In this document: in pieces, positions 2,445 through 63,013 of the stretch
How positions within the stretch are numbered: position 1 is the stretch's first letter
How the letters are laid out: every line of letters starts with the position of its first letter
Origin: Promethearchaeia archaeon
GTDB taxonomy: Archaea; Asgardarchaeota; Lokiarchaeia; Sigyniarchaeales; SOKP01
Direction of reading: 5' to 3'
NCBI GenBank assembly: GCA_046483985.1
Contig: JAWOCD010000085.1
Location: 8,957 to 72,956, forward strand
DNA: 64,000 bases
Program-made: the position numbers and the translations under genes
Notes under the pieces: generated by a model
The model's database searches: none
What the model was told of the DNA's origin: nothing
The model's input: the letters and a program-made list of their open reading frames with translations, nothing else

Positions 2445-3587
2445 CTATTTTTTATTTTTTCTTTTGTAGAGATCGATTAATTTTCCGAAAAACTTTTGAT
2501 AGATCTCAATAGTCTTTAAATAATCTGAAATCTCAATGTATTCATCTTTAGTATGCTCTAGTTTTGGATCTCCTGGTCCGTAGGTTATTGAGGGTATATT
2601 TAGAGCGGCCCCAATTTTATTTATAAAGGTGGTCCCGGTTTTTTTAATTAGGGTTGGTTTTTCGTGTAGTGTTTTGAAAATCGCCCATCGGAGGGCTCCA
2701 ATGACCAAGTTTTTACCTTCTATCTCGAATCCTTCGATTTTGCTTAAAATTTCAAGGGTGACCTTAGCTTTCCCTCCCGATTTTAATACCCTCTCTTTAT
2801 AATGTGCCAGTACTTCTCTAATAGACTCTAAAATCTCTTTTACCTTAATAGTTGGCGGAAAACGGATATCGATACTCAAACTACAGTTTGACGGGACACA
2901 ATTGTTTATGTCCCCTCCGTTAATAACAGTTAGATTAGGAATAATTTGATTAAAATAACGGGTATTTTTATTTAGAATTTCAATCTTTTTATTTAACTTT
3001 TTACAAGTTTGCTGGATATCTTCCCAGATATTCAAACCCATCTCGATGGCGTTGAGATATTCCCAAGAAGAAGCAACGTGTCCTTTCTGGGTTTTAATTT
3101 GTATTTCAAAACATATTCTTCCCTTATACCCTATACAAATTTGGTCGATCTTGGTAGGCTCTCCGAAGATTGCATAATCTGGTCTTATTTTCGATTCTAA
3201 AAAAGTATCTATTCCAATGAGACTATCTTCTTCTCGCACGATTCCGGCAAACGTGATTTTTCCCTCTTCAGCAAATTTGAATTCCTTTATTGCGTAGACC
3301 ATTGCTGCTAAAGCCGGTTTACAATCTACGGCTCCTCTTCCGAATATCTTCCCTTCTTTTTTAATCACGGGTAATTTCCCGGGGATGGTATCCATGTGAG
3401 AAACTAACAAAAGATGAGGCTTTCCTTTCCCTTTTTCTGCGATTAAATTTCCAACCTTATCAAAATGAGTTCGAAACCCACCATTTTTCAAAAAATCTTC
3501 CAAGAATTGTGCGTAATGTTCTTCCTTCCCCGAAGGGCTATACAGTTCTATGCACTGTTTTAGAAATTTAACGGCTTTTTTATTCAT
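2445..3587 (-). CDS. lysK: M20-family amidohydrolase, [LysW]-lysine/ornithine hydrolase or acetylornithine deacetylase type (LysK/ArgE)
   Basis: M20 metallopeptidase motifs LLLVSHMDTIPG, GRGAVDCK and VREEDS, with C-terminal GPGDPKLEHTKDEYI. It lies last in a co-directional lysX-lysZ-lysK run. The ATG at 3587 overlaps the upstream stop; the ORF-track start at 3593 is TTG. Confidence 0.7.
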   Translation of the reverse strand: MNKKAVKFLKQCIELYSPSGKEEHYAQFLEDFLKNGGFRTHFDKVGNLIAEKGKGKPHLLLVSHMDTIPGKLPVIKKEGKIFGRGAVDCKPALAAMVYAIKEFKFAEEGKITFAGIVREEDSLIGIDTFLESKIRPDYAIFGEPTKIDQICIGYKGRICFEIQIKTQKGHVASSWEYLNAIEMGLNIWEDIQQTCKKLNKKIEILNKNTRYFNQIIPNLTVINGGDINNCVPSNCSLSIDIRFPPTIKVKEILESIREVLAHYKERVLKSGGKAKVTLEILSKIEGFEIEGKNLVIGALRWAIFKTLHEKPTLIKKTGTTFINKIGAALNIPSITYGPGDPKLEHTKDEYIEISDYLKTIEIYQKFFGKLIDLYKRKNKK

Positions 3588-5468: not shown

Positions 5469-6002
5469 GTGTCAAATAAAAAGATTGGTGCTGTAAAAAT
5501 CGATTTTCTTAATTCCAGAATAGAAATGAGCCCTAATATGAAAATTTTAAAGAAAAAGGCTCAATCTATTACTGATTCCGATGAGAACGAGGAAGTAACT
5601 ATTTTCTTTGAAATTGAGGATAACGACTTGACTAAAACAGAGTATAAAGCATATTCTTTATTTAAGGATGAAATTGACGATGACGAGCCTTTTGATCTGG
5701 AGAATCCGTGGTATAAAGATGAATCTGTCGCGGTTCCAAATTCCGGCAACGCTTCCACACCTAAAAAAGAGCCAGAACCCCAACCAGAACCTAAAAAAGA
5801 GCCAGAACCCCAACCAGAACCAACATCTCCGGAAATACAAAAGCTCCAAGCGAAATTAACTAAAATTAAAAATATGATCACCGAGTTAGATCAGAAATTT
5901 AAAGAAGGAAAAATTGAACAGAAAGCATTTTTAAAGAAAAAAGATTATCTATCCCAGAAAGCTGGGTCTCTAATGGGGCAGATTGAAAAATTAAAAGGAT
6001 AA
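5469..6002 (+). CDS. hypothetical acidic/coiled-coil protein with PKKEPEPQPE tandem repeat and SHOCT-like C-terminus
   Basis: 177-aa ORF with a GTG start. It contains the in-frame 30-bp x2 repeat. The C-terminal KFKEGKIEQKAFLKKKDYL resembles the SHOCT short C-terminal domain pattern. No enzymatic motifs seen. Confidence 0.45.
   Translation: MSNKKIGAVKIDFLNSRIEMSPNMKILKKKAQSITDSDENEEVTIFFEIEDNDLTKTEYKAYSLFKDEIDDDEPFDLENPWYKDESVAVPNSGNASTPKKEPEPQPEPKKEPEPQPEPTSPEIQKLQAKLTKIKNMITELDQKFKEGKIEQKAFLKKKDYLSQKAGSLMGQIEKLKG
5761..5820 (+). repeat. perfect 30-bp tandem duplication (CTAAAAAAGAGCCAGAACCCCAACCAGAAC x2), in frame
   Basis: Read directly from the sequence. It encodes PKKEPEPQPE twice. Confidence 0.95.
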
Positions 6003-28810: not shown

Positions 28811-29803
28811 GTGAAAAGGATGAGAGCGGCAGTTTTTGAGGATGTTCGAAAAATTTCCTATGAAGAAGATTATCCCAAGCCAGAAATCACTCCCGACCAA
28901 GTGTTGGTCAAGGTCGCTTATTGTGCTATCTGTGGCACTGATGTGACTAATTATAAAAAGAAATTATATCAAACTCCAGTGGTGATGGGTCATGAATTTT
29001 CAGGTACCATTGATAAGATAGGAAAAAATGTGCAAGGATTTCAAGTAGGGGATAAAGTCGTGGGTATTAATGTTTTATTGGAGATTGGGCGTTCAGATTC
29101 TGGAGGGATGGGCATTTTCAAAGATGGAGGGTTTGCAGAATATGTGGCGGTTCATAAAAACGATTTGTTTCATGTTCCCTCGCCCAATTCGCTAAAAGAG
29201 TGTTCCATGATAGAATCATTTGCTGTCTCCGTCCGGGCATTCAAACGATGTAATATGTCTAAACATCAGAAGATTGTAATTATAGGCGGTGGAAATATAG
29301 GGCTAGGGGCACTTAATATTCTAAAGAACCAATATGATCCGGAATATGCAGTGGTGGTTGAAATCTATGAACCTTTAAGAAAAAAAGCGAAAGAATTGGG
29401 TGCAGATGATACTCTTCCTCCCAGCAAGGCGAAATTAAGGAGATATTTCAGAAAAAACGGAGAACCCGATTATATCCTTGATTGTGCGGGAAACGACAAG
29501 ACATTCGATCTGGCTATTAATACGATAAAAAGGGGGGGAACGATTGTGTTAGAAGGAATCTATAAAGGCAATGTCGAATTCCCTCTATTTTTAATGAATA
29601 ATAAGGAAATCACGCTTATTGGCACTTTATCTCATGACCGAGAAGACGTACAAGATACAATTGATCTCTTTACTAGTGGAAATGTTCAACCTGCCAAATT
29701 AATCTCTGATGTTATTCCTTTATCCGAAATACAAGAAGAAGGGTTCGAGCGCTATATGACTGATCAAGAAAGAGATTTTATCAAAATATTAGTGGAAATC
29801 TAA
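28811..29803 (+). CDS. zinc-dependent medium-chain alcohol/polyol dehydrogenase
   Basis: CAICGTDV and GHEFSGTI zinc-ligand motifs and a Rossmann IIGGGNIG. The start is GTG at 28811 or ATG at 28820. Confidence 0.8.
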   Translation: MKRMRAAVFEDVRKISYEEDYPKPEITPDQVLVKVAYCAICGTDVTNYKKKLYQTPVVMGHEFSGTIDKIGKNVQGFQVGDKVVGINVLLEIGRSDSGGMGIFKDGGFAEYVAVHKNDLFHVPSPNSLKECSMIESFAVSVRAFKRCNMSKHQKIVIIGGGNIGLGALNILKNQYDPEYAVVVEIYEPLRKKAKELGADDTLPPSKAKLRRYFRKNGEPDYILDCAGNDKTFDLAINTIKRGGTIVLEGIYKGNVEFPLFLMNNKEITLIGTLSHDREDVQDTIDLFTSGNVQPAKLISDVIPLSEIQEEGFERYMTDQERDFIKILVEI

Positions 29804-30390
29804 ATTTTTTCAGATCTTTCAATTACCTTTTTGCTCATCAATCTAAATGCAGTTTCTACATTATTTCCTGTCTTTGCGGAAGTAATTATTGTTTCCAAAG
29901 CGTTGATTTCCTCACCTAAAGAATCCAATTTCTCTTGGTTTACCTTTCTGGGGAGATCTGCCTTATTTCCAACTAAAATGAGGGGAATTTCATCATTACA
30001 GTGTTCCATCAAATCGGGAAACCAGAATGTTTCTATCTCTTCAAACGTCTTTTCTCGAGTAAGGTCCCCGATAATTAATGCACCTTGAGCCCCACCATAG
30101 TAAAGATGTCTAGTTTTCTTCCACCGTTCGTGCCCAGCAATATCCCATAATTGAATATCTACATGGTGATCTTTATCCTTTTCAACGGGGATGTCCATAT
30201 TTCCTAATTCTAATTTTTTCACATACATATTGACCCCGATGCTTGCTCTATAATCATTCAGAAAATGTCCCGAAACGAAACGTTCGGCTAAACTGGTTTT
30301 TCCAACGCCCGGTTCACCAGTTATAACAACCTTAAACACCCAATATCGTTCAGAAATTGTTCTATTTTCACTTTTCAAGATTTCATTCAC
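29800..30390 (-). CDS. Ras-superfamily small GTPase, Rab-like
   Basis: G1 GEPGVGKTS, G3 WDIAGHERW (compare Rab WDTAGQERF), G4 GNKADL, G5 TSAKTG. No C-terminal Cys lipidation motif. Confidence 0.85.
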   Translation of the reverse strand: MNEILKSENRTISERYWVFKVVITGEPGVGKTSLAERFVSGHFLNDYRASIGVNMYVKKLELGNMDIPVEKDKDHHVDIQLWDIAGHERWKKTRHLYYGGAQGALIIGDLTREKTFEEIETFWFPDLMEHCNDEIPLILVGNKADLPRKVNQEKLDSLGEEINALETIITSAKTGNNVETAFRLMSKKVIERSEKI

Positions 30391-30548: not shown

Positions 30549-31640
30549 ATGACAACCGGAATAATTTACGATGATATCTACCTTGAGCACCGCATCGGAA
30601 CCCATGTGGAGAGCCACAAACGGCTTATCGGAATTATGGATTTATTACGAAATAGAGGCTTATTAGATAATCCGGATTATCAAGTTATCAAACCGTATAA
30701 GGCAACCCTGGATCAAATCAAATATGTACACAATGTAGAATTAATCAAAGAAGTAAAAGAAATTAGCAAATTAGCCGAGAAAACTGGGCATATCCAACAG
30801 CTTGATATGGACACCTCCGTTTCTGCAAAAACTTATGAAGCGTCCCTTTATTCTGTGGGAGGAAACTTGAAAGCTATCGATGAAATCCTCAATGGAAACA
30901 TCAAAAACGGATTTGCTTTAGTAAGACCCCCCGGTCATCACACGAATGCGTATAAATGTTCTGGATTCTGTTTTTTTAATAACATAGCAATTGCAACGGA
31001 GTACTTATTAAGAGATAAAGATATTGATCGGGTCGCAATTATTGATTGGGATTGTCACCACGGCAACGGCACTCAAGATATTTTTTATAAAGGCTCACCT
31101 TCGGGTGAAGGCGAGGTTGTCTTTTTTAGTTCTCATCAAGATGGGAGGACCCTGTATCCAGGAAGCGGGTTTGAAAATGAGATTGGAGAGGGAAACGGAA
31201 AGGGCCATATCATTAATTTTCCCATGCCACCTAACTCTGCCGACGATGCGATTATGGAATTCTTTCATGAAATAGTATCACCTCTCTTAAACGAATATGC
31301 TCCCCAATTTATCTTGATCTCTGCAGGATTTGATACCCACTACACAGATCGCCTCACAGGGATGGGTTGGACTTACCAAGCTCCGGCCAATTATCTCAAA
31401 TTAATTAAAGCCATTGCACATGAATATGCAAACGATAGAATATTAATTACCTTAGAAGGGGGATATGATATAGATAAACAAGCACGGGCGGTATATAATT
31501 GCCTCAAGGTACTTAATGATGAGGAGGACTTAATCACGGAAAAGCCCAGAACGTCCGACTCCGAACTGTTGACATACTTAGATGGGAAATTGTTTCCGAA
31601 ATTAAAGGAAAATCTGGCGCCATTTTGGGAATGCTTTTAA
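30549..31640 (+). CDS. histone deacetylase-family (class II/AcuC-like) deacetylase/amidohydrolase
   Basis: RPPGHH, DWDCHHGNGTQ and SAGFDTH motifs, followed by EGGY. Confidence 0.85.
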   Translation: MTTGIIYDDIYLEHRIGTHVESHKRLIGIMDLLRNRGLLDNPDYQVIKPYKATLDQIKYVHNVELIKEVKEISKLAEKTGHIQQLDMDTSVSAKTYEASLYSVGGNLKAIDEILNGNIKNGFALVRPPGHHTNAYKCSGFCFFNNIAIATEYLLRDKDIDRVAIIDWDCHHGNGTQDIFYKGSPSGEGEVVFFSSHQDGRTLYPGSGFENEIGEGNGKGHIINFPMPPNSADDAIMEFFHEIVSPLLNEYAPQFILISAGFDTHYTDRLTGMGWTYQAPANYLKLIKAIAHEYANDRILITLEGGYDIDKQARAVYNCLKVLNDEEDLITEKPRTSDSELLTYLDGKLFPKLKENLAPFWECF

Positions 31641-31852: not shown

Positions 31853-32950
31853 ATGTCGGACGAGAATGAAAAAAAAGAAGATAAAGATGATGATCTTGAT
31901 TTAGATTTTGACTTACCGGATTTGGGCTTAGAAGATGAGGAGGAACCATCAATGCCTCCACCGACCGAAGCTCCCCCCTCACCGGCACCGACAGAACCAT
32001 CAGCACCGACAGAACCATCAGCACCGACAGAACCATCAACTATGAAAGCACCAGAACCCACCTCTTCATCCCCTTCCCCTGAATCCACACCCTCGCCCAC
32101 ACCAACTACCGAATCTATGTCCGCACCACCTTCGCCTACACCCTCAACCGAACCAGAATCAACTGCTCCCTCTCAAAATGAATTGGATAATATGCAACAA
32201 CAAGTAAGCGCGAAGGACCAAAAGATAAATGAACTTCAAAACAAAATAAATGAATTGAACAACCAACTGAGTCAAGCAAGCGGAGAAACATCCAACCTTC
32301 AATCCCAATTGACCCAAAAGGAGAACCAGATCAACCAACTGAATAATGAATTGCAAAATACAAAAAATTCGATGCAACAGTTACAATCGCAAGTTAATCA
32401 ATTACAATCCGAAAAAGAACAACTCCAAGATCAAATTCCGAACTTGCAACAGCAAATACAACAGCTACAGCAAGAGAAAGCTAATTTGCAAGGTCAGATC
32501 CAACCTCTCCAACAAAAAATACAGCAATTGGAGCAAGATGTTGCGTATAAGGATAAACGTATCAAAGAATTGAAGGAACCAAAGGCAGTTATGGGCTCGT
32601 CTCTCTCTCAAGAACAACCAAGCTCTCCAGGAGCTTCTCAAAGCAGTAGTTCATTTGGAAGCTCCTCTTCCAGCGTAATGGGGGGCGGCGGACAAACAGG
32701 AACATCTGGCACTACTGGAGGCGGTACGGGAGGCGGTACGGGAGGCGGTACGGGAGGCACTACTGGAGGCGGTACGGAACAGACTCCCTCGGTGGACGTA
32801 GGAGGCACTCGAACAAAGTGTCCAAATTGTGGAGCAACCGGTCAAGCCATTAAGGAAGTTGAAGATAAAAGTAAAGTCATCAGCTATATCCCCAAACCAA
32901 TTTATGCCAAGAAGTATGTGTGCACTAAGTGTGGATATGAATTCTCATAA
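31853..32950 (+). CDS. hypothetical modular protein: acidic N-terminus, P/T/S-rich repeats, Q/N-rich coiled coil, G/T-rich repeats, C-terminal zinc ribbon
   Basis: 365-aa ORF. The heptad-like NELQNKINELNNQLSQ...QIQQLQQEKANLQGQIQPLQQKIQQLEQD region precedes a C-terminal CPNCG...CTKCG. It contains two perfect in-frame tandem repeats. Confidence 0.55.
   Translation: MSDENEKKEDKDDDLDLDFDLPDLGLEDEEEPSMPPPTEAPPSPAPTEPSAPTEPSAPTEPSTMKAPEPTSSSPSPESTPSPTPTTESMSAPPSPTPSTEPESTAPSQNELDNMQQQVSAKDQKINELQNKINELNNQLSQASGETSNLQSQLTQKENQINQLNNELQNTKNSMQQLQSQVNQLQSEKEQLQDQIPNLQQQIQQLQQEKANLQGQIQPLQQKIQQLEQDVAYKDKRIKELKEPKAVMGSSLSQEQPSSPGASQSSSSFGSSSSSVMGGGGQTGTSGTTGGGTGGGTGGGTGGTTGGGTEQTPSVDVGGTRTKCPNCGATGQAIKEVEDKSKVISYIPKPIYAKKYVCTKCGYEFS
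31985..32038 (+). repeat. perfect 18-bp x3 tandem repeat (GCACCGACAGAACCATCA), in frame (APTEPS)
   Basis: Read directly from the sequence. Confidence 0.95.
32717..32752 (+). repeat. perfect 12-bp x3 tandem repeat (GGAGGCGGTACG), in frame (GGGT)
   Basis: Read directly from the sequence. A related ACTACTGGAGGCGGTACGG occurs at both flanks. Confidence 0.9.
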
Positions 32951-33216: not shown

Positions 33217-36200
33217 ATGTCGTTAGAGAGAGAACTCTTAGAGCCGCAAATTAACAAAAAACGTGCTGCTGCCGTTTTTTTAATTGCTATCCTCTTAATC
33301 GCTTTTTTTTCACTCTCTACTGTATTATTCAACTTTTTATTGGGTTCACAACGTATAAATCCCAATGAAAAGCTTGATGATGCGGATTTTGAGGATGTTA
33401 CCTTAAATATGCCCGACATTCCCTTTGATCTGGAAGATCTTATTGATGCGTTGGATCCGGAAGATTTGGAAGATTTAGACCTAACTGAAGAGGATATCGA
33501 TGAACTCTTCCAAGAAATGTACGATGGCGATATCGATAATATGGACTTAAGCACGATGGGAGCAGCAATGGCAGCTCTCCTCGGGTCCGATGAGGAGGTA
33601 TTTCGAATTTTTGATTACGACAATTTTGACAATTTGTCCGATAAGCTCTGGCGCTATGAATGTTTTGAAGAGTATAACGGAACCAGCTGGAAATCTTCGG
33701 CAAGTAAACAAATATTCGATTTTTATTCGTATGGGGATTTAGAGGGAAGCGAAGACATTTTGAGGTTAAAGAGGGCCATGAATCCCTCATCAGATCAGAA
33801 CTCATTTGTGGCTCCCGCTCTTTTTCCGAATCCTAATATTATGGAAGGGAGCGTGAGCGGAGATACCTTGGATGAGAGTTCTGCAACACTTTACAAGGAT
33901 GATTATAATTGCACCACCATGGATGCAACCTTTACCAGCGATCAAGAAACCAATATGTCGTATGAATTATTTGGAACGCCCCAACCCAGCCCCGAAGATT
34001 TAAATTCGAGCCAAGTTGACGAGTCCTTTACTCCATCCGCAATTAGAGACCTCTATTTACAACTCCCGCCCTCAATCTCCACTTACAGGGCCAATCATGA
34101 TGACTTTGACAGGCATTGCGACAACTTAGAGGTCATCATTAAGGAAGACGATGGGGCATATACAGTCGCAAATAAGATACGGAACTATTTGCAAGCGAAT
34201 TTTACCGATCCCTACAGTGGAGGAGCAGAGATTTATACGGATGATGGCCCCGCAGAAGGAGAGGATGAAATAGAATGGTTCTGTGAAAAGGAGGGGGGGT
34301 TATGGTCTCATTTCGCTTCAGCTTTTACTGCATTTACCCGGGTATTCGGTGTTTCTAGCAGATATGTTAACGGATTTAATAGTCGGGCCCTCGATGAGGT
34401 CTCTGACCCTCAAGAAGGAGAAGATGCGGCGGTGGTCCGATATAAAAATTTGTATAATTGGGCAGAAATCTATGTTCCTACAGATACCTCTGGAAATGGA
34501 CGTTGGGTGGAGATGGATATTAATTTCGAGACCTTTGGAAGTGGAGGAATGACCGCGCCAGAAGGGGAATATAATATTACGCTTACTTCTAATGTTACTG
34601 GACCGATAAATCGTGGAAATATTGCAGAACTGAATGCCTCACTGAGTTCAGATACGGGAGATGTAGAGGATAAGGAAATAAAGTTCTATGATCATAATAA
34701 TCCTGAGACACCATTAGGTTCTGCAATTACTAATGCCAATGGAAATGCCACTCTACTCGTTGATATTAATGATACACAAGTTGTGGGCCCTCATAATATT
34801 TATGCTACTTATTACACCTCCTATTCAAATCCGATAACTTATTTAATTAACGATGATATTGTCGTTCATTTATCCAGGGTTAATCCGCAAGAAGTTAATA
34901 GATCGGATTCTAATCCCGATGAGACAACTATTAAAGGTAATGTCTATGATCCTGCAAATAATGAAGGGGTGCGGGATGCTGATATTGAATATGTATTGTT
35001 AGAAAAAGGAACCAATAACAAATATAATAGTGCATTTACTCCAAATTGCTCACAAACAAATAGCACGGGAGATTTTGAAGATACTATTTCTGTTAATGCC
35101 CCACCAGCAGCACCTTATGGAACATTTGATATAAGAGTTGATTTTAATGGAACGTGGAATGATGGTCTTTATGTATCTGAGCTCATGGAAAATTCCAGTA
35201 ATCGCATCGAGTTTAATCATACGAGTACTCATAGTGTTAACTTTTACATAAACAACACTGATTCAACCAATTATGAAAATCCCACGGTAAATAGAACCGA
35301 TTCGTTACATTTAAAAGCGAAAGTCGTTGCTTCCGATGGTTCGACAATTCCAGATAAGGATGTGCAATTTATTAATGCCGATAACAATTCTACACTTTTC
35401 ACAAATACTACAAATGCTGATGGACTTGCCACCTATACCTTTGATTTAAATTCCTCTGTTTTGGCGGGTCCAAACTTACTCTGTGCTCAAGTGGGATATG
35501 TCACCAATTATTCCTATTTTGTTTTGGAAGAGAAACCAACCATTCATATAAATTCTGGACCAACTCCCAGAGAGATAAATAGAACAGGTTCAGGAATTAA
35601 AGAATTTTCTATTCCTGGCAGCATTAATGATACTAATGGCAATCCAATTCCATATGCCGAAATTGGATTGAGGATATTTAGAAATTCAACAGATTTCTCC
35701 GAGTATTTAAGTCCCCCTGATCCTCCCAAGGTTAATTCTGACGGAAAATTTAATTTTACCTACGGAGTTTCTGAAAATATTCCATACGGAAATTATACAT
35801 TACGGATGGACTTTAACGGCACAGTGGATCGGTCAGACGATTCAGATTATCCTCATTATTTTGAATTGTCCGAGATGGATAACTCAACCATTCTTACAGA
35901 TGAGTTAAAGGTTGAGGCACCTGATGAGTTCACAATGGATTTTTTCATTGATGGATACAGCAATGATGATTTTTATTCGCCTAATATTACCCGAAATGAT
36001 GAAGTAAACTTATCGGTTGAAATCCAATGGGGTATGGATCTTGCAAAGGACGGAGATATCGTTACCTTCAGGGACCATACTCAAGATCTCGTTATCGCCG
36101 AGAAAGAACTTAGTAACGGTCAAGCGAGTGTTAGTTATGAAATGAATGATACTATTGTGGCAGGACCCCACCTTATTTCCGCAAGCTATGATAGAGCTGG

Positions 36201-37686
36201 AGCTGGAGAAAAAAATCATTCTTATTTCATTTTGGATGCTCCTATTGATATTGACCTGGATTTTGTCCCGCAAACAATTAATAGTACCGGGAACATCGGT
36301 AGGAATTTTGTTGTTCGCGGTTCTTTGAAAGATCCTTCAAACAGTAAATCTGTTAAATATGGGCAAATTTCAGTCCATATGCTTGATGGTAATGACGACG
36401 TTTCTTTCTATCTCAATCAAGAAGCGGGGGATTTGGCTCTAAATGAGACAGGGGAGATTTATGCCGAATTTAGCGTTAGCGAGAGTACACCTCCAAAAAA
36501 TTATACAATAGAGACTCGTTTTAACGGCACCTTTTTGTACACCAATTCTGAAGAAGATTACCAATATGATTATTTCTTGCCCGAATGGAGCAATTTCTCG
36601 GCGGCGAACGAAAGTGAAAATGAACTAGAAGTAATTAACCCTGAAGAATTATCTATTACATTTAAAATCGGAGGAGAACATACAAGACCAACCTATGATA
36701 ATAGTAATCCACCTGCAACATATCAAAAAGGAGAGAATGCCACCTTTGAGGTCTGGGTCAATCATACGACAACGGATGAAGGAACTGTCCGGCTTATGGA
36801 CAATTACACCGGAACTGAATTGGATTCTGCCGAAGTTAATATAACTGAGGGGGGATATCATGAATTTAGTATAAATACCACCGATTTGCACGCTGGATTA
36901 CATAGAATAATTGTTACTTATGAGGATTTCAACACGATTAATGATACATATATAGTAATAAACGAGAGTGTAGATATCTCCAGTGAACTAAGTGTGGAAA
37001 AAGTAAGGAGAAATCAAAATGGATTTTCGGTAGAGGGAAATGTCACCGATGAGGGTGAACCCTTAAGAGCCTTAAATCTTAGCATTAATTTCTATGATTC
37101 CTCAATGCAAGATGCTTCGGATTATTTCAATTTAGAAGGATCTTCGTCCATAATAGTTCAAGAAGATGGGACATATTGTTTTAATATCAGCTACGTGGAT
37201 CTGGAGGCTCCTCAAGGGCAGTATTATGTGCAGATTAATTTCACGGGCGATATAATTGAATTACCGGATGTTCATCTCACCGATTATATGGTCCATAGCA
37301 ACAGTAGTTGTATGACCTTGAATGTAACGGCGGGTACTACTATTACCGAAGGAGATTCTTATACTTTAAATGAAAAAGAAGAAAAATGGTATAATGATGA
37401 TATTCTATACGTTACCGGTAATTTAACGTGGGATAACGGAAGCGCAATGGAAGGGTATAATGTGAATGTGACCATAGAGGATGAAAACGGAAACGTTATA
37501 GCATTCAATGATACGGTGACCGTCGATTCCAGCGGCTTTTTCAACGGCTCGCTTACTGTTGACTCGAATTGGCCAACCTATCAAGAAGATACAAGTATTA
37601 AGGTCGAGTTTAATCCCTTTGATGAGCATAATTTTGACATGACAGATGGTTATTATGTTGAAGGTTCTAGTCAAGAATATACTTAA
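33217..37686 (+). CDS. large N-terminally anchored surface protein with transglutaminase-like core (Cys and His positions substituted) and many Ig-like/sequon-rich repeats
   Basis: N-terminal TM (AAVFLIAILLIAFFSLSTVLFNFLL). TGase-like core EKEGGLWSHFASAFTAFTRVFGVSSRYVNGF...YNWAEIYVP...GRWVEMD. More than 1000 aa of repetitive beta-rich sequence follow, with dozens of N-x-S/T sequons. Confidence 0.7.
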   Translation: MSLERELLEPQINKKRAAAVFLIAILLIAFFSLSTVLFNFLLGSQRINPNEKLDDADFEDVTLNMPDIPFDLEDLIDALDPEDLEDLDLTEEDIDELFQEMYDGDIDNMDLSTMGAAMAALLGSDEEVFRIFDYDNFDNLSDKLWRYECFEEYNGTSWKSSASKQIFDFYSYGDLEGSEDILRLKRAMNPSSDQNSFVAPALFPNPNIMEGSVSGDTLDESSATLYKDDYNCTTMDATFTSDQETNMSYELFGTPQPSPEDLNSSQVDESFTPSAIRDLYLQLPPSISTYRANHDDFDRHCDNLEVIIKEDDGAYTVANKIRNYLQANFTDPYSGGAEIYTDDGPAEGEDEIEWFCEKEGGLWSHFASAFTAFTRVFGVSSRYVNGFNSRALDEVSDPQEGEDAAVVRYKNLYNWAEIYVPTDTSGNGRWVEMDINFETFGSGGMTAPEGEYNITLTSNVTGPINRGNIAELNASLSSDTGDVEDKEIKFYDHNNPETPLGSAITNANGNATLLVDINDTQVVGPHNIYATYYTSYSNPITYLINDDIVVHLSRVNPQEVNRSDSNPDETTIKGNVYDPANNEGVRDADIEYVLLEKGTNNKYNSAFTPNCSQTNSTGDFEDTISVNAPPAAPYGTFDIRVDFNGTWNDGLYVSELMENSSNRIEFNHTSTHSVNFYINNTDSTNYENPTVNRTDSLHLKAKVVASDGSTIPDKDVQFINADNNSTLFTNTTNADGLATYTFDLNSSVLAGPNLLCAQVGYVTNYSYFVLEEKPTIHINSGPTPREINRTGSGIKEFSIPGSINDTNGNPIPYAEIGLRIFRNSTDFSEYLSPPDPPKVNSDGKFNFTYGVSENIPYGNYTLRMDFNGTVDRSDDSDYPHYFELSEMDNSTILTDELKVEAPDEFTMDFFIDGYSNDDFYSPNITRNDEVNLSVEIQWGMDLAKDGDIVTFRDHTQDLVIAEKELSNGQASVSYEMNDTIVAGPHLISASYDRAGAGEKNHSYFILDAPIDIDLDFVPQTINSTGNIGRNFVVRGSLKDPSNSKSVKYGQISVHMLDGNDDVSFYLNQEAGDLALNETGEIYAEFSVSESTPPKNYTIETRFNGTFLYTNSEEDYQYDYFLPEWSNFSAANESENELEVINPEELSITFKIGGEHTRPTYDNSNPPATYQKGENATFEVWVNHTTTDEGTVRLMDNYTGTELDSAEVNITEGGYHEFSINTTDLHAGLHRIIVTYEDFNTINDTYIVINESVDISSELSVEKVRRNQNGFSVEGNVTDEGEPLRALNLSINFYDSSMQDASDYFNLEGSSSIIVQEDGTYCFNISYVDLEAPQGQYYVQINFTGDIIELPDVHLTDYMVHSNSSCMTLNVTAGTTITEGDSYTLNEKEEKWYNDDILYVTGNLTWDNGSAMEGYNVNVTIEDENGNVIAFNDTVTVDSSGFFNGSLTVDSNWPTYQEDTSIKVEFNPFDEHNFDMTDGYYVEGSSQEYT

Positions 37687-55378: not shown

Positions 55379-55456
55379 ACTTTAATTTTTTTAAGTTTAA
55401 CTCTCTTCTAATACTATCTATTTTATAAATTCGACTTATCTTATTTGATATCATCC

Positions 55457-56065
55457 ATGTCGCCTATGAAGTTATCAGAAAAAATGAAATTCTTTAACAT
55501 TGGCCGTTATAAAGAGGAACGGGATACGTTTTATGAATGGAAAAGCAAAAATTTTAATAAATCCATCTCCTTTATCGTGCACTCCACGCGGAGTGCTCCA
55601 GAAAGAGATATCTTTTATACCATAAACAAAAAAGATTATAAAGCCGTTTATTATATTCCAGAAGATATTGATGCGGTATTTACGATAGGTGCGGACCCAG
55701 ATATTCAATCCGTCATTTTAGAAGCACTCTTAGAATATCTCCATAATAAGTTTTTCGAAATGTATGAAGGTTCTCTCCTTACGGCATGTTATGGAGAAAG
55801 ATGCGATATTTTTAACGGGTTTACGGATGTGCTCCTTGACTCGTTTAGGAATTTTAGAGAATTAGATTTGGTAAAAGCGACCAGGGTTAATTGCAAGGCG
55901 TGTAAAAAGAACATGCAAGTGTATATAAAAAAATCCTTAATTGAGAATGCCTCACAATTTCCGGTTCCTATCGTCTTTGTTCATTCCGGACACGCGCTCT
56001 TAATATATATAGATAGGCAGTACAAGACTCGAGGAACGGGGCTGGTTTCTCTTTCTTATAAATAA
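55457..56065 (+). CDS. hypothetical protein, paralogue A (longin-like pattern plus conserved C-terminal beta-rich module)
   Basis: Aligns by eye with the next gene: AVFTIGADPDIQSVILEALLEYLHNKF versus LVFTLGAESSIQFQILEALLEYLKEKF. The ATG at 55457 is preferred; the ORF-track start at 55445 is TTG. Confidence 0.55.
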   Translation: MSPMKLSEKMKFFNIGRYKEERDTFYEWKSKNFNKSISFIVHSTRSAPERDIFYTINKKDYKAVYYIPEDIDAVFTIGADPDIQSVILEALLEYLHNKFFEMYEGSLLTACYGERCDIFNGFTDVLLDSFRNFRELDLVKATRVNCKACKKNMQVYIKKSLIENASQFPVPIVFVHSGHALLIYIDRQYKTRGTGLVSLSYK

Positions 56066-56174
56066 GATTAATGATCATCAGGATAAATTCTCCATTTTCT
56101 TGTATTTCTCTTATCCATAAAAACTTTAAAAATATCGGTAGTTAATCTTTAATAAAAGTATTTTATCTATAGCT

Positions 56175-56774
56175 ATGGTTAGTTCCTTAATAGAGAATTT
56201 GAACTCAAAGGTATATTTTTTCCAAGTCACTAAAGGGGGAAACCAACTTTTTACCTGGAAATCTAGATTTATTAAGAAGGCATTTTTTAATACGGGATTC
56301 TTTAACAAGACTATTACGAATTATGATTTATTCCATCATCTAAATAAAGGAGATATTAAAATGGTCGGGATCAAGTCACGCCCTAATTTAGTTTTTACCT
56401 TGGGCGCAGAGAGTTCTATTCAATTTCAAATTTTAGAAGCATTATTAGAATACTTGAAGGAGAAGTTCACTAAAAAATATGCAGATATAATTTCTCTTGA
56501 ATTTGGGGCGAGTTCAGCGAAGCCCTTCGCTGAATTTGAAGAGGTGATTCTAAACTCACTGGAGGAATTCGAAGAATTAGACCTTATCAAAGTCATTGAT
56601 GTATACGTGGACTTTTTAAGAAAAAGACTAAAAATTGCAGTAAAGCGTTCTCTAATACAAGATGCCGAAGGAAATGTGCCCTTTGTGTTCTATTATAAAG
56701 GAATTTCTATTCTTCTTTATCTTGATCATGAATACCATGTGAGAGGATTAGAAAAGGTAAGTTTTTCCAATTAG
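56175..56774 (+). CDS. hypothetical protein, paralogue B of the 55457 gene
   Basis: Shared motifs ELDLIKV and VPFVFYYKGISILLYLDHEYHVRG, versus VPIVFVHSGHALLIYIDRQYKTRG in paralogue A. Confidence 0.55.
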   Translation: MVSSLIENLNSKVYFFQVTKGGNQLFTWKSRFIKKAFFNTGFFNKTITNYDLFHHLNKGDIKMVGIKSRPNLVFTLGAESSIQFQILEALLEYLKEKFTKKYADIISLEFGASSAKPFAEFEEVILNSLEEFEELDLIKVIDVYVDFLRKRLKIAVKRSLIQDAEGNVPFVFYYKGISILLYLDHEYHVRGLEKVSFSN

Positions 56775-56870
56775 AAAAGACATAACCTAAATGCTTTTAA
56801 ATTTGAAAAATTTACTTTAATATGTTTATTTTTCAAATATCATCATCTATAACAAATAAACTACAAAGAT

Positions 56871-57734
56871 ATGACAATTTATAATATTCAAGTCATTTCG
56901 AGCACGGGTTATCCTTACTTCAACAAAAATATTAAGGAAGAACCTGAAGACATTAAGTTATTTTTGAGATTTTTCGATTTTACGGAAAAAGCAGAAAGTT
57001 TTCCCCCCAGTTTAGATGATGATTCAAATTTTTCGTTATTGGCAGGACTTGTTTCTGCTTTATTTGAATTCGCAAAAAACATTAATAAAAACATCAATAC
57101 CTTGTCATTTAAGTCCTTACATCGTCCAAAGGGAAGACCAAAAATAGAGAAAAAATATCAAGGTGATTGTCTTATTACTACACAAACAGAAACCTATCTT
57201 CTCCATAAAAGTATACGCCAGAAAATAAATTACATTTACAAAGCAATCGTTTCTTCTAAGATTCCGTTTGAATCTGCTGACCCGCTTACGGAAAAAGAAC
57301 AAAAAACCATCGTCGATATATTAACAGATGAAAAAGCGAGAAATCATTTAAAACAAAATACCGGGAAAATAAAAGATATCGCCGAAAAATTATTGCGTGA
57401 ACGGGGAGATTATGGATTAGAATCGATTGCGATAACCTCATTTGATCTTACCCCCCTTCGGGTGTATGGAAGTAAGTATTCTTCTGAAGATATTGAAAAT
57501 ATTTTAAGGAATATTGGTGAAATTCCGCAAATTGATCCGTTCGAGTGGAAATATCGTCAATCCTTTTTGAACAATTCTCAAGTATGGATCTATCTTATTA
57601 ATTCAGGAATCGGAGTGACGGTTGAGGAAACTCTTTTTGAACCATATTTTTATTTGCTCTTCTGTGATCCCCAATCATACTTAGGAGAATTTCCCAATAA
57701 ATTAACACGAGATTTAAATTCAATTCTCGGATAA
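56871..57734 (+). CDS. hypothetical protein with longin/roadblock-like N-terminal pattern
   Basis: 287-aa ORF. MTIYNIQVISSTGYPYF...FSLLAGLVSALFEFAKNI resembles the start of longin-type domains. The C-terminal part (VWIYLINSGIGVTVEE...FYLLFCDPQSYLGEFPNKL) may be a second such domain. Confidence 0.5.
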   Translation: MTIYNIQVISSTGYPYFNKNIKEEPEDIKLFLRFFDFTEKAESFPPSLDDDSNFSLLAGLVSALFEFAKNINKNINTLSFKSLHRPKGRPKIEKKYQGDCLITTQTETYLLHKSIRQKINYIYKAIVSSKIPFESADPLTEKEQKTIVDILTDEKARNHLKQNTGKIKDIAEKLLRERGDYGLESIAITSFDLTPLRVYGSKYSSEDIENILRNIGEIPQIDPFEWKYRQSFLNNSQVWIYLINSGIGVTVEETLFEPYFYLLFCDPQSYLGEFPNKLTRDLNSILG

Positions 57735-61045: not shown

Positions 61046-61552
61046 ATGTCAAATTACTCGAGAAAGGACTTACTTGACGCTGATGCTACAATGAATCAGC
61101 TTAGAAATATGGTGACCCACCTTCAGAGATTTATGAAAAAAAGCGGGGTTGAAAATATAATTGAACGCTATAGAAGGATGGGGAAACAGATGGCTGACAC
61201 CTATATTAACTATTGGAAGCCCATTGATAGCGTAAAACTTGCAAACATTCGAGATGTAATCGCTACGATTTATAAAAAAATTGTAGGCAGCCAGATTAAT
61301 ATTTCGATCAATGAAAAAGAGCATTTGATCACTGTAGTTGACTCAAATTGCTCTTTATGTAAATACCAATTTGATGATATAAACGTTGCTGGTTGCGAGA
61401 TCATCTTGGCTTTAGTCAGCGAGATGATTAACTTAATTAACAAAAATTCTCCCGATTCTTCAAGACTACGTTTAGAACCTTTCGCGGTAAAAGAATCACG
61501 AACATTTGGAGATGATTCCTGTGTTCAAATATATAAATATAAAATTGAATAA
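61046..61552 (+). CDS. V4R-domain (Bet3/TRAPP-like) protein
   Basis: 168 aa. C-terminal NCSLCKYQFDDINVAGCEIILALVSEMINL...VKESRTFGDDSCVQIY fits the V4R pattern (Cys pair, G/A-rich helix, E...GD..C). Confidence 0.55.
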   Translation: MSNYSRKDLLDADATMNQLRNMVTHLQRFMKKSGVENIIERYRRMGKQMADTYINYWKPIDSVKLANIRDVIATIYKKIVGSQINISINEKEHLITVVDSNCSLCKYQFDDINVAGCEIILALVSEMINLINKNSPDSSRLRLEPFAVKESRTFGDDSCVQIYKYKIE

Positions 61553-63013
61553 TTGAGATTAGGTGAATATAATTTGGGACTATTTCAATGGTTATTAAAA
61601 AAAGTGACGAAAGCATTTGGGAGAGATACGGACGCATTATTTTATACCTTACTATATAGAGAGATTCTCAAGGAAATTCAAGAAATCACTCAAGACGAAG
61701 AGAAATCATTAATTGTAATGCGGGAGTTGGGGAAAAATGCGGCTTATGATTCATGTGATAGGCATTCGAGTATTTTTCGGATCATGCCAGGAAAGCCGGA
61801 TAAAGTTTTAGACTACTTTGGTATCCTTTGGAGTGTTGTATTTGGGATGGATTTTGCAGAGCATAATTATGAACGCATCCCCAATGACGGACATGTCTAT
61901 GATGATTACGTGCTTAATATTCAGAAAAATCCGATTTGTGCGAGCTATAGTAATGATAAAGAAGACACATTTGATTTTAAGAGGGTCCCCGATGATCAAG
62001 ATGGATGTAGTGCGGGTTTATGCGGAATGCTGGAGACCGTTGCTAATTTTATCTTGAAAGTAAAGAAAGCAGAATACCGGATCGGTATGCAAGAAACCAA
62101 ATGCCTGGCAAAAGGCGATGACGTGTTGCAGCTTTATTGTAAAATTTATAATCTTGAGGAATGGAAGCAATACATCGAAAAAGAAGGACAAAAAGATATC
62201 TTCTCCGAGGATTTTCTTGAGCAAGGCGAACCAGATTTACTTGATAAAGTTCAAGATCTCTTTTCATTGGATAAAATGGAGCAAATTCTGGAAGAGCCCT
62301 TGGAGAATGTCAAAGATAAGGTGGCAGATCTTATCCGAGAGAAGTTAAATATGGGACCTAGGCACTTCTTTGATTATTTCAGAAACTACGAAGATGACAT
62401 GATTCGCATTGTTGGGTTTTTGTTTGTTCATTTACTGAATGAATACGGGGGATTTGTAGAAAAGTTTCTGAAGAACGATGTCCTGGCGCGATTAGCTGGA
62501 TATTTATTCAAGCATATGAAGGAAATGACTCTTCTATTTATTCCGTTAGATGTTGTCCACGATTACCATGAATTATTTGTTAGTTTTCTCAAAGGATTGG
62601 CTCCAGAAGAGATGATTCAAAGAATTGAGAGCTTTTCCGCACAAGAAGATATTAATCTATTATTTGAAGGCGCACAGATCGCCCTCGAAGATTTGGGAAT
62701 AGACTTTTCAGAATTGAAAGATAATATTTGGGAAGAATTGAAGGAGGACCGTGAAGATGAATTGATCTCTTCGGATCAATCTGTTATTGATAAATCCCGT
62801 GAAAGATTTCCGAAAATTGTTAATATTCTTCAAGAAATCGTGATGTTGATTAGTGAAATCTTAACGCTTCCCGTGCGAACTCTAATATCTGGAAGCCATC
62901 ATTCAGTTAAATCGGCGGTTAATTCTGTAGTATCCGAAGAGGAGGGATTATACGGACAAATTAGAGATCGAGCGGATAATATCTTTGACGAAGTGGAAGA
63001 ACTTCAGGATTAA
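61553..63013 (+). CDS. protein with N-terminal V4R-like domain and acidic helical C-terminal extension
   Basis: It starts (TTG) immediately after the upstream stop. NPICASY...DGCSAGLCGMLETVANFIL...MQETKCLAKGDDVLQLYCKIY fits the V4R pattern. The C-terminal ~280 aa are E/D-rich helices. Confidence 0.5.
   Translation: MRLGEYNLGLFQWLLKKVTKAFGRDTDALFYTLLYREILKEIQEITQDEEKSLIVMRELGKNAAYDSCDRHSSIFRIMPGKPDKVLDYFGILWSVVFGMDFAEHNYERIPNDGHVYDDYVLNIQKNPICASYSNDKEDTFDFKRVPDDQDGCSAGLCGMLETVANFILKVKKAEYRIGMQETKCLAKGDDVLQLYCKIYNLEEWKQYIEKEGQKDIFSEDFLEQGEPDLLDKVQDLFSLDKMEQILEEPLENVKDKVADLIREKLNMGPRHFFDYFRNYEDDMIRIVGFLFVHLLNEYGGFVEKFLKNDVLARLAGYLFKHMKEMTLLFIPLDVVHDYHELFVSFLKGLAPEEMIQRIESFSAQEDINLLFEGAQIALEDLGIDFSELKDNIWEELKEDREDELISSDQSVIDKSRERFPKIVNILQEIVMLISEILTLPVRTLISGSHHSVKSAVNSVVSEEEGLYGQIRDRADNIFDEVEELQD

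Follow-up and report, generated by a model that had tools for sequence, protein, structure and literature searches.

We analysed a window of 64,000 nucleotides from a Promethearchaeia archaeon (contig JAWOCD010000085.1), in which three tandem genes, hereafter A, B and C, lie between positions 55445 and 57734. A and B encode paralogous proteins predicted to consist of a longin domain and a zinc-ribbon-like module. The product of C, a member of a highly conserved Asgard family, is predicted to have two domains of longin/roadblock type. The most likely role of these proteins, which we propose with moderate confidence, is that C forms together with A and/or B a longin/roadblock platform regulating a small GTPase. 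This proposal is based on the predicted folds, on the conserved pairing of genes A and C and on the fusion of the same zinc-ribbon-like module to GTPase domains in other proteins. As dimers, longin and roadblock domains provide binding platforms for small GTPases, on which they act as guanine nucleotide exchange factor (GEF), GTPase-activating protein (GAP) or scaffold, as in MglB, Ragulator, TRAPP, Mon1-Ccz1 and FLCN/GATOR1 (PMC10933270, PMC12290439).

Genes A and B are paralogues with a predicted longin domain

A first-pass annotation of the window had described three tandem co-oriented genes at 55445-57734. This was confirmed: all three are open reading frames (ORFs) of the forward strand, and they are real genes because each has conserved homologues in Asgard metagenome-assembled genomes (MAGs). 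Gene A (55457..56065, +) encodes a protein of 202 amino acids. A TTG codon at 55445 is an alternative start that would give 206 amino acids (ORF 55445-56065); homologues favour the ATG at 55457, since their alignments with A begin at residues 1-6. Gene B (56175..56774, +; 199 amino acids) has the same two domains according to its ORF, BLASTP and alignment, and gene C (56871..57734, +) encodes 287 amino acids. Identical proteins are present in NCBI as the hypothetical proteins R6U96_13015, R6U96_13020 and R6U96_13025 of a Promethearchaeia MAG. The NCBI models are shorter for A (193 amino acids) and for B (137 amino acids, starting at M63). Because homologues align from the first residues, the longer ORFs of 202 and 199 codons are the better models, and the public ones look truncated by the stretches 55457-55483 and 56175-56360.

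BLASTP aligned 195 residues of A and B with 34% identity and 53% positives (E = 2e-32), a similarity that extends over their full length and is far beyond chance. The alignment also covers both segments from which the first-pass annotation had recognized the two genes as full-length paralogues, and we likewise consider them true paralogues on the strength of this alignment. No further copy of the A/B family, of the C family or of the C-terminal module of A was found in the window, and Pfam and NCBIfam scans of the three proteins gave no match above threshold.

A profile search with the A family retrieved 110 representative clusters, about 40 of which are full length (190-210 amino acids), the remaining ones being either fragments or proteins whose similarity is confined to the last ~60 residues. 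All members with a source name come from Promethearchaeota. The AlphaFold2 (AF2) model of A, built on a 40-sequence alignment, reached a mean predicted local distance difference test score (pLDDT) of 93.1 and a predicted template modelling score (pTM) of 0.89. Its first domain (residues 1-135; 55457..55861, +) shows between residues 10 and 136 the longin topology β-β-α-β-β-β-α-α, devoid of an N-terminal helix, with strands at residues 10-17, 24-29, 53-57, 62-66 and 73-79 and helices at 37-44, 85-102 and 122-136. When the model was compared with the PDB using Foldseek, the 12 matches with E ≤ 1e-3 were all longin domains of VAMP7, Ykt6, Sec22b or SYBL1. The top longin structures matched with a probability of 1.0, E-values of 2e-5 to 9e-4 and target-normalised template modelling (TM) scores of 0.62-0.71, and the R-SNARE longins superposed with a root-mean-square deviation of ~3 Å over ~127 columns. 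At lower ranks came NPRL2, LAMTOR subunits, AP-2 sigma, zeta-COP, SR-alpha SRX, Lst4 and synbindin; of these, NPRL2, LAMTOR, SRX, Lst4 and synbindin are longins and roadblocks of GTPase platforms and speak for the role proposed above.

Structure prediction and fold search, which the first-pass annotation had itself named as the test that could refute its proposal, thus returned a longin domain for A. The central segment in which longin strands and helix had been suspected (YKAVYY, VFTIGA and ILEALLEYL) corresponds to β4, β5 and α2 of the model. Two details of that proposal did not hold: the second motif quoted, VPIVFVHSGHALLIYIDRQYKTRG, lies outside the longin domain and is part of the zinc-ribbon-like module, and the closest structures are R-SNARE longins instead of TRAPPC1/Bet5.

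In profile comparisons, Pfam Longin (PF13774) is matched by 14 of 40 A-family members, always below threshold (best E = 7e-4), and by none of the 59 C-family members. A itself does not match this profile, and B reaches 13 bits (E = 0.099), under the gathering score of 26.2 bits. A few A-family members weakly match Fuz_longin_1 (2 of 40), SRP-alpha_N or Intu_longin_1, and the search of PDB sequences with the A-family profile yielded only chance-level matches or generic CxxC knuckles. Taken together, the predicted structure and these matches make the longin assignment of A and B well supported.

Gene C combines two predicted longin/roadblock-type domains

The C family comprises at least 429 clusters, with 53-60% identity over the full length among the matches listed. 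In an alignment of 59 sequences, column identity averages 66% and 34 residues are invariant. The family is present in 116 species-level genomes, almost all of them labelled Promethearchaeota.

The AF2 model of C has a pLDDT of 78 and a pTM of 0.79 and divides the protein into three parts. The N-terminal domain (residues 1-130; 56871..57260, +) was delimited from the model and from conservation. It is predicted to open directly with β1, followed by a loop with the invariant G13-x-P15 between β1 and β2, by the α1 helix with the conserved sequence AGL[IV]SALFEF and by further strands and a long helix, with a variable insert at residues 82-96. A helical linker follows (residues 131-181; 57261..57413, +; pLDDT > 90), made of three helices (141-181), the last of which packs as the N-terminal helix of the next domain. 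This third part (residues 182-287; 57414..57731, +; pLDDT 85-95) has strands at 183-189, 195-199, 226-233, 236-251 and 255-265 and helices at 205-213 and 274-286. With the linker helix 164-181 included, residues 164-265 adopt the roadblock topology α-β-β-α-β-β-β, and G182, L183, S190, D192 and P195 are invariant.

In the Foldseek search with C, the top match was Fuzzy (7q3d_C, identity checked; E = 1.6e-3, probability 0.96, global TM 0.28), followed by MglB and MglC (E ~0.03, TM ~0.5, probability 0.95-0.96). Next came the roadblock domains of Asgard Rag-like GTPases, which match in their C-terminal domains, LAMTOR, a TRAPP core subunit and the VAMP7 longin. The E-values against solved roadblock structures are modest (0.03-0.3). 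Neither half of C is related to the other or to the longin domain of A according to hhalign, and no C-family member matches Pfam Fuz_longin or Intu_longin.

On structural grounds, we infer that in C a longin-like domain is joined through a linker to a roadblock-like domain. The roadblock-like topology of the C-terminal domain is confidently predicted, and the assignment of the N-terminal domain as longin-like is tentative, its model being of low confidence. The latter assignment had been suggested from the start of the third gene. For C as a whole, support is weaker than for A and structural, given by the matches to Fuzzy, MglB and MglC, and no sequence signal was found.

Finally, we noted that four loci from MAGs labelled Thorarchaeota or Odinarchaeota (L040, L043, L069 and L076) carry a C protein 51-53% identical to that of the window, which nests among those of Promethearchaeota in the C tree. 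Either these labels are unreliable or the C gene has been transferred.

Genes A and C form a pair that looks ancient

In 6 of 80 species-level loci holding C, its immediate upstream neighbour on the same strand is a gene of the A family, and the same arrangement is found in L003 and in the window. The most informative locus belongs to the divergent MAG Kow0069 (L086), where an A-like gene (33% protein identity to A) adjoins a C-like gene (34% identity to C) in the same orientation, with a gap of 36 bp. The surroundings of this pair (SIS, glycosyltransferase and HDAC genes) are unrelated to those of the window. In a neighbour-joining tree of C proteins rooted on L086, A-C adjacency occurs on early branches of several clades. 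Since the adjacency persists in L086 at ~34% identity and in early-branching lineages, the pairing looks ancient, and this suggests that A and C are an ancestral pair that has been repeatedly separated. At the loci of distant A-family members that were inspected, no C or GTPase gene adjoins.

The zinc-ribbon-like module recurs in GTPase and V4R proteins

The first-pass annotation had overlooked that residues 136-202 of A (55862..56062, +) form a separate module, visible in both the AF2 model and the alignment. This β-rich module carries a ligand pattern typical of zinc ribbons, with C146 and C149 (CxxC) and H176 and H179 (HxxH). In the model, the CxxC pair lies on the hairpin formed by strands 139-146 and 151-158, and the HxxH pair at the turn between strands 170-176 and 179-185, so that the predicted structure has the two knuckles and four ligands of zinc-ribbon geometry. 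The four ligands are kept in 33 of 40 relatives of A. D186 and R192 belong to the motif YID..[FY]x[VT]RG and do not vary in the alignment. B and its orthologue P0130 have V, L, Y and I in place of the ligands and retain the aspartate and the arginine.

The module has no Pfam family of its own, and a search of PDB sequences with its profile returned nothing more specific than generic CxxC knuckles. It is present in ~40 other protein clusters, at either end or in tandem, and all carriers with source names are Asgard MAGs. Among 41 proteins examined, it is fused to a Ras/Arf/Gtr1-type GTPase domain in four, to V4R in two and to a ubiquitin-like domain in one. The four GTPase-fused modules (P0196, P0213, P0238 and P0241, all encoded outside the window) accompany a P-loop small-GTPase domain and are zinc-less like that of B. 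In the sampled data, the module thus has the appearance of an accessory domain, undescribed and restricted to Asgard archaea, that belongs to a set of GTPase, longin and V4R proteins.

A candidate platform for a small GTPase

In the model that we favour, C would pair with A and/or B into a dimeric longin/roadblock platform, which would bind one of the many Ras-superfamily small GTPases of this archaeon and control its nucleotide state or its location, as GEF, GAP or scaffold. Known examples of this mechanism are MglB, Ragulator, TRAPP and Mon1-Ccz1; for the present proteins, the GTPase partner, the activity and the direct association of C with A or B are inferred.

Several observations weigh against this model. 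In structure, A comes closest to SNARE longins, which do not regulate GTPases. The N-terminal domain of C is poorly modelled (pLDDT 36-74), and sequence comparisons give C no support: the family matches no longin or roadblock family of Pfam (PF03259, 0 of 59 members at E ≤ 1), its profile found nothing among PDB sequences, and hhalign detected no relation to the A family. The comparison with the first longin domain of Fuzzy (LD1, residues 1-139) was not significant either (hhalign probability 0.13); this alignment, which thus has no significance, places residues 2-19 of C in register with Fuzzy 9-26 (SSxGxPxF). Furthermore, at 74 of the 80 species-level loci of C, the A family is not represented within a distance of 5 kb, and C therefore needs no adjacent A in general. 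Finally, no GTPase gene lies next to the three genes. The GTPase gene that had been reported at 29800-30390 is a real Ras-family gene (29803-30390), and this nearest candidate is located 25 kb away.

Alternatively, A, B and C could be adaptors or regulators of longin/roadblock fold acting independently of GTPases, for example protein-interaction modules like the regulatory longins of R-SNAREs or the sigma/zeta coat subunits, or generic sensors of small ligands or partners within the wider PAS/GAF-like superfold. The structures nearest to A are the longins of VAMP7, Ykt6 and Sec22b, with AP-2 sigma and zeta-COP at lower ranks, and several PAS domains occur among the weaker matches of C. The neighbourhood contains no GTPase gene, and it has been cautioned that longin-like domains alone imply no role in trafficking or with GTPases (PMC4917890). 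However, A and B lack a SNARE motif, a coiled coil and a membrane anchor and have instead the 67-residue zinc module, which is fused to GTPase domains elsewhere, and the PAS matches of C have probabilities of 0.25-0.69, as against 0.95-0.96 for Fuzzy, MglB and MglC. We therefore regard GTPase-independent adaptors as rather unlikely.

It is less probable still that the three genes are functionally unrelated and owe their adjacency to an inherited gene order. The three genes are flanked by ordinary housekeeping genes, with LeuRS encoded upstream and flavin reductase, TIM, a 4Fe-4S protein and thioredoxin downstream, and in relatives the complete order LeuRS - (A) - C - (flavin reductase) - TIM - Fer4 - thioredoxin is kept. 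Most C loci, moreover, have no A-family neighbour. Inherited order of this block does not account for L086, where the A-like and C-like genes are direct neighbours in the same orientation, with 36 bp between them, amid completely different genes.

The last alternative, that A and B are nucleic-acid-binding zinc β-ribbon regulators like the haloarchaeal transcription regulators of Brz type, with the longin as sensor or dimerisation domain and C as a mere syntenic neighbour, could draw on the weak Zn_ribbon_Brz matches of 6 of 41 module proteins (best E = 0.0029), on the likeness of the CxxC region to ribosomal and other zinc knuckles and on single module carriers with HTH_Crp_2, TrmB or DEAD-helicase domains, but it is quite improbable, as all these matches are under the Pfam thresholds and confined to the generic CxxC knuckle, A-C adjacency persists at ~34% identity, and the zinc-less modules of B and of the GTPase fusions retain the invariant D and R, so that zinc-dependent nucleic-acid binding is not the conserved feature.

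Our favoured model of a GTPase platform can be taken further, into an extension that we put forward as speculative and improbable. The A-C pair might represent a heterodimeric multi-longin complex of archaea, of the sort ancestral to the eukaryotic GEFs of the Mon1-Ccz1 or Fuzzy-Inturned type or to the longin GAPs, and the YID...RG module an unrecognised, apparently Asgard-specific GTPase-interacting domain, in which D186 and R192 would act directly on the GTPase, for example as an arginine finger. Such a direct action would explain both why the module survives the loss of its zinc ligands and why it is fused to Ras/Arf-like domains.

History of the A/B duplication

The window retains both paralogues, unlike its two closest relatives. 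L089 has only a gene of B type, and decayed fragments of A are found in the 313-bp gap after LeuRS (2742-3054). L090 has only a gene of A type, and fragments of B are found in the 342-bp gap before C (5610-5950). We had considered B as a recent duplicate specific to the window and rejected this, as the relatives keep A or B with remnants of the other copy. Since each of them holds one paralogue and remnants of the other, the duplication is older than the split of the window, L089 and L090, and reciprocal loss came after it. This points to an at least partial interchangeability of A and B, although B lacks the zinc ligands.

Other genes of the window

The Rab-like Ras-family GTPase gene (29803-30390, -) forms a divergent pair with a gene for an HDAC-family deacetylase (30549-31637, +). 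The same divergent GTPase/HDAC pair occurs in L086 (8222-9946), ~3 kb downstream of A-C, and the two GTPases are 38% identical. The pair may be conserved, or its recurrence may be due to chance among many paralogues. It is followed in the window by a gene for a 365-amino-acid protein whose only Pfam matches are of coiled-coil type (31853-32947, +) and by an ORF of 1489 amino acids (33217-37686, +). Further downstream, two adjacent genes (61046-61549 and 61553-63010, both +) encode proteins of 168 and 486 amino acids with no Pfam match. Their counterparts (169 amino acids, and 483 or 487 amino acids) occupy a syntenic position downstream of thioredoxin in the Asgard loci L002 and L003.

Comparison with known systems

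Longin/roadblock platforms are the core of the eukaryotic GTPase regulators TRAPP, Ragulator, GATOR1, FLCN and Mon1-Ccz1. In Asgard archaea these folds are abundant: 41 longin and 38 roadblock domains have been reported for Lokiarchaeum (Klinger 2016 as summarised in PMC4917890), 130 asCOGs belong to the Roadblock superfamily (Liu 2020, bioRxiv 10.1101/2020.10.19.343400), and Loki-type genomes have been known since 2016 to contain dozens of longin/roadblock domains, some of them fused to GTPases, and no SNAREs (PMC4917890; bioRxiv 10.1101/2020.10.19.343400; PMC10933270). The first-pass annotation had recognised no characterised prokaryotic family of this architecture; given this abundance (PMC4917890, PMC10933270), the kind itself is not new. 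In the searchable literature we found no longin protein with a CxxC/HxxH module, no description of the module, of the longin-linker-roadblock family of C or of the A-C pair. Thus, proteins of this kind are already known in Asgard archaea, and the zinc-ribbon add-on and the ancient gene pairing seem to be undescribed.

How the longin and roadblock proteins of Asgard archaea are matched with their partners is an open question, as the genes for GTPases and their regulators are rarely found in operons in these archaea (PMC10933270). The conserved A-C pair offers biochemistry a concrete candidate complex to test, and the module shared with GTPase and V4R proteins offers a further handle. If the complex is real, it would show how multi-longin regulators were assembled before eukaryotes; otherwise, these are three more Asgard longin-like proteins.

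A, B and C share organism group and fold classes with the reported Asgard longin, roadblock and longin-GTPase-roadblock proteins (PMC10933270). Compared with the R-SNARE longins (VAMP7, Ykt6 and Sec22b; PF13774), residues 1-135 of A superpose at TM 0.6-0.7, whereas SNARE motif, heptad helix, hydrophobic tail, lipid anchor and transmembrane helix are all absent from A, whose longin domain is followed by the zinc-ribbon-like module. Residues 164-286 of C have the topology α-ββ-α-βββ-α of the roadblock/LC7 proteins (MglB 3t1r, MglC 7ct3, LokiRag 8yl2, 9m28 and LAMTOR); unlike in these platforms, the domain shares its polypeptide with a longin-like domain at the N-terminus and neither stands alone nor follows a GTPase domain.

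The GAP longins of the FLCN/SMCR8/NPRL2 type are defined by a GP motif before β2 and an arginine finger (PMC12290439). In C, the loop just before β2, where the GP motif sits, contains a glycine and a proline that are invariant, and the nearly invariant R33 is nearby. However, its motif is G-x-P and not GP, A and B lack the motif, and there is no DENN or NPRL C-terminal domain. With the subunits of tri-longin RabGEFs (Fuzzy/Inturned and Mon1/Ccz1), C shares a co-linear, multi-domain match to Fuzzy as its top hit, but it has two α/β domains and a helical linker in 287 amino acids, whereas these subunits have three domains in more than 400. The gene for C lies next to that of another longin protein, A, an arrangement reminiscent of the heterodimeric complexes of tri-longin-domain proteins.

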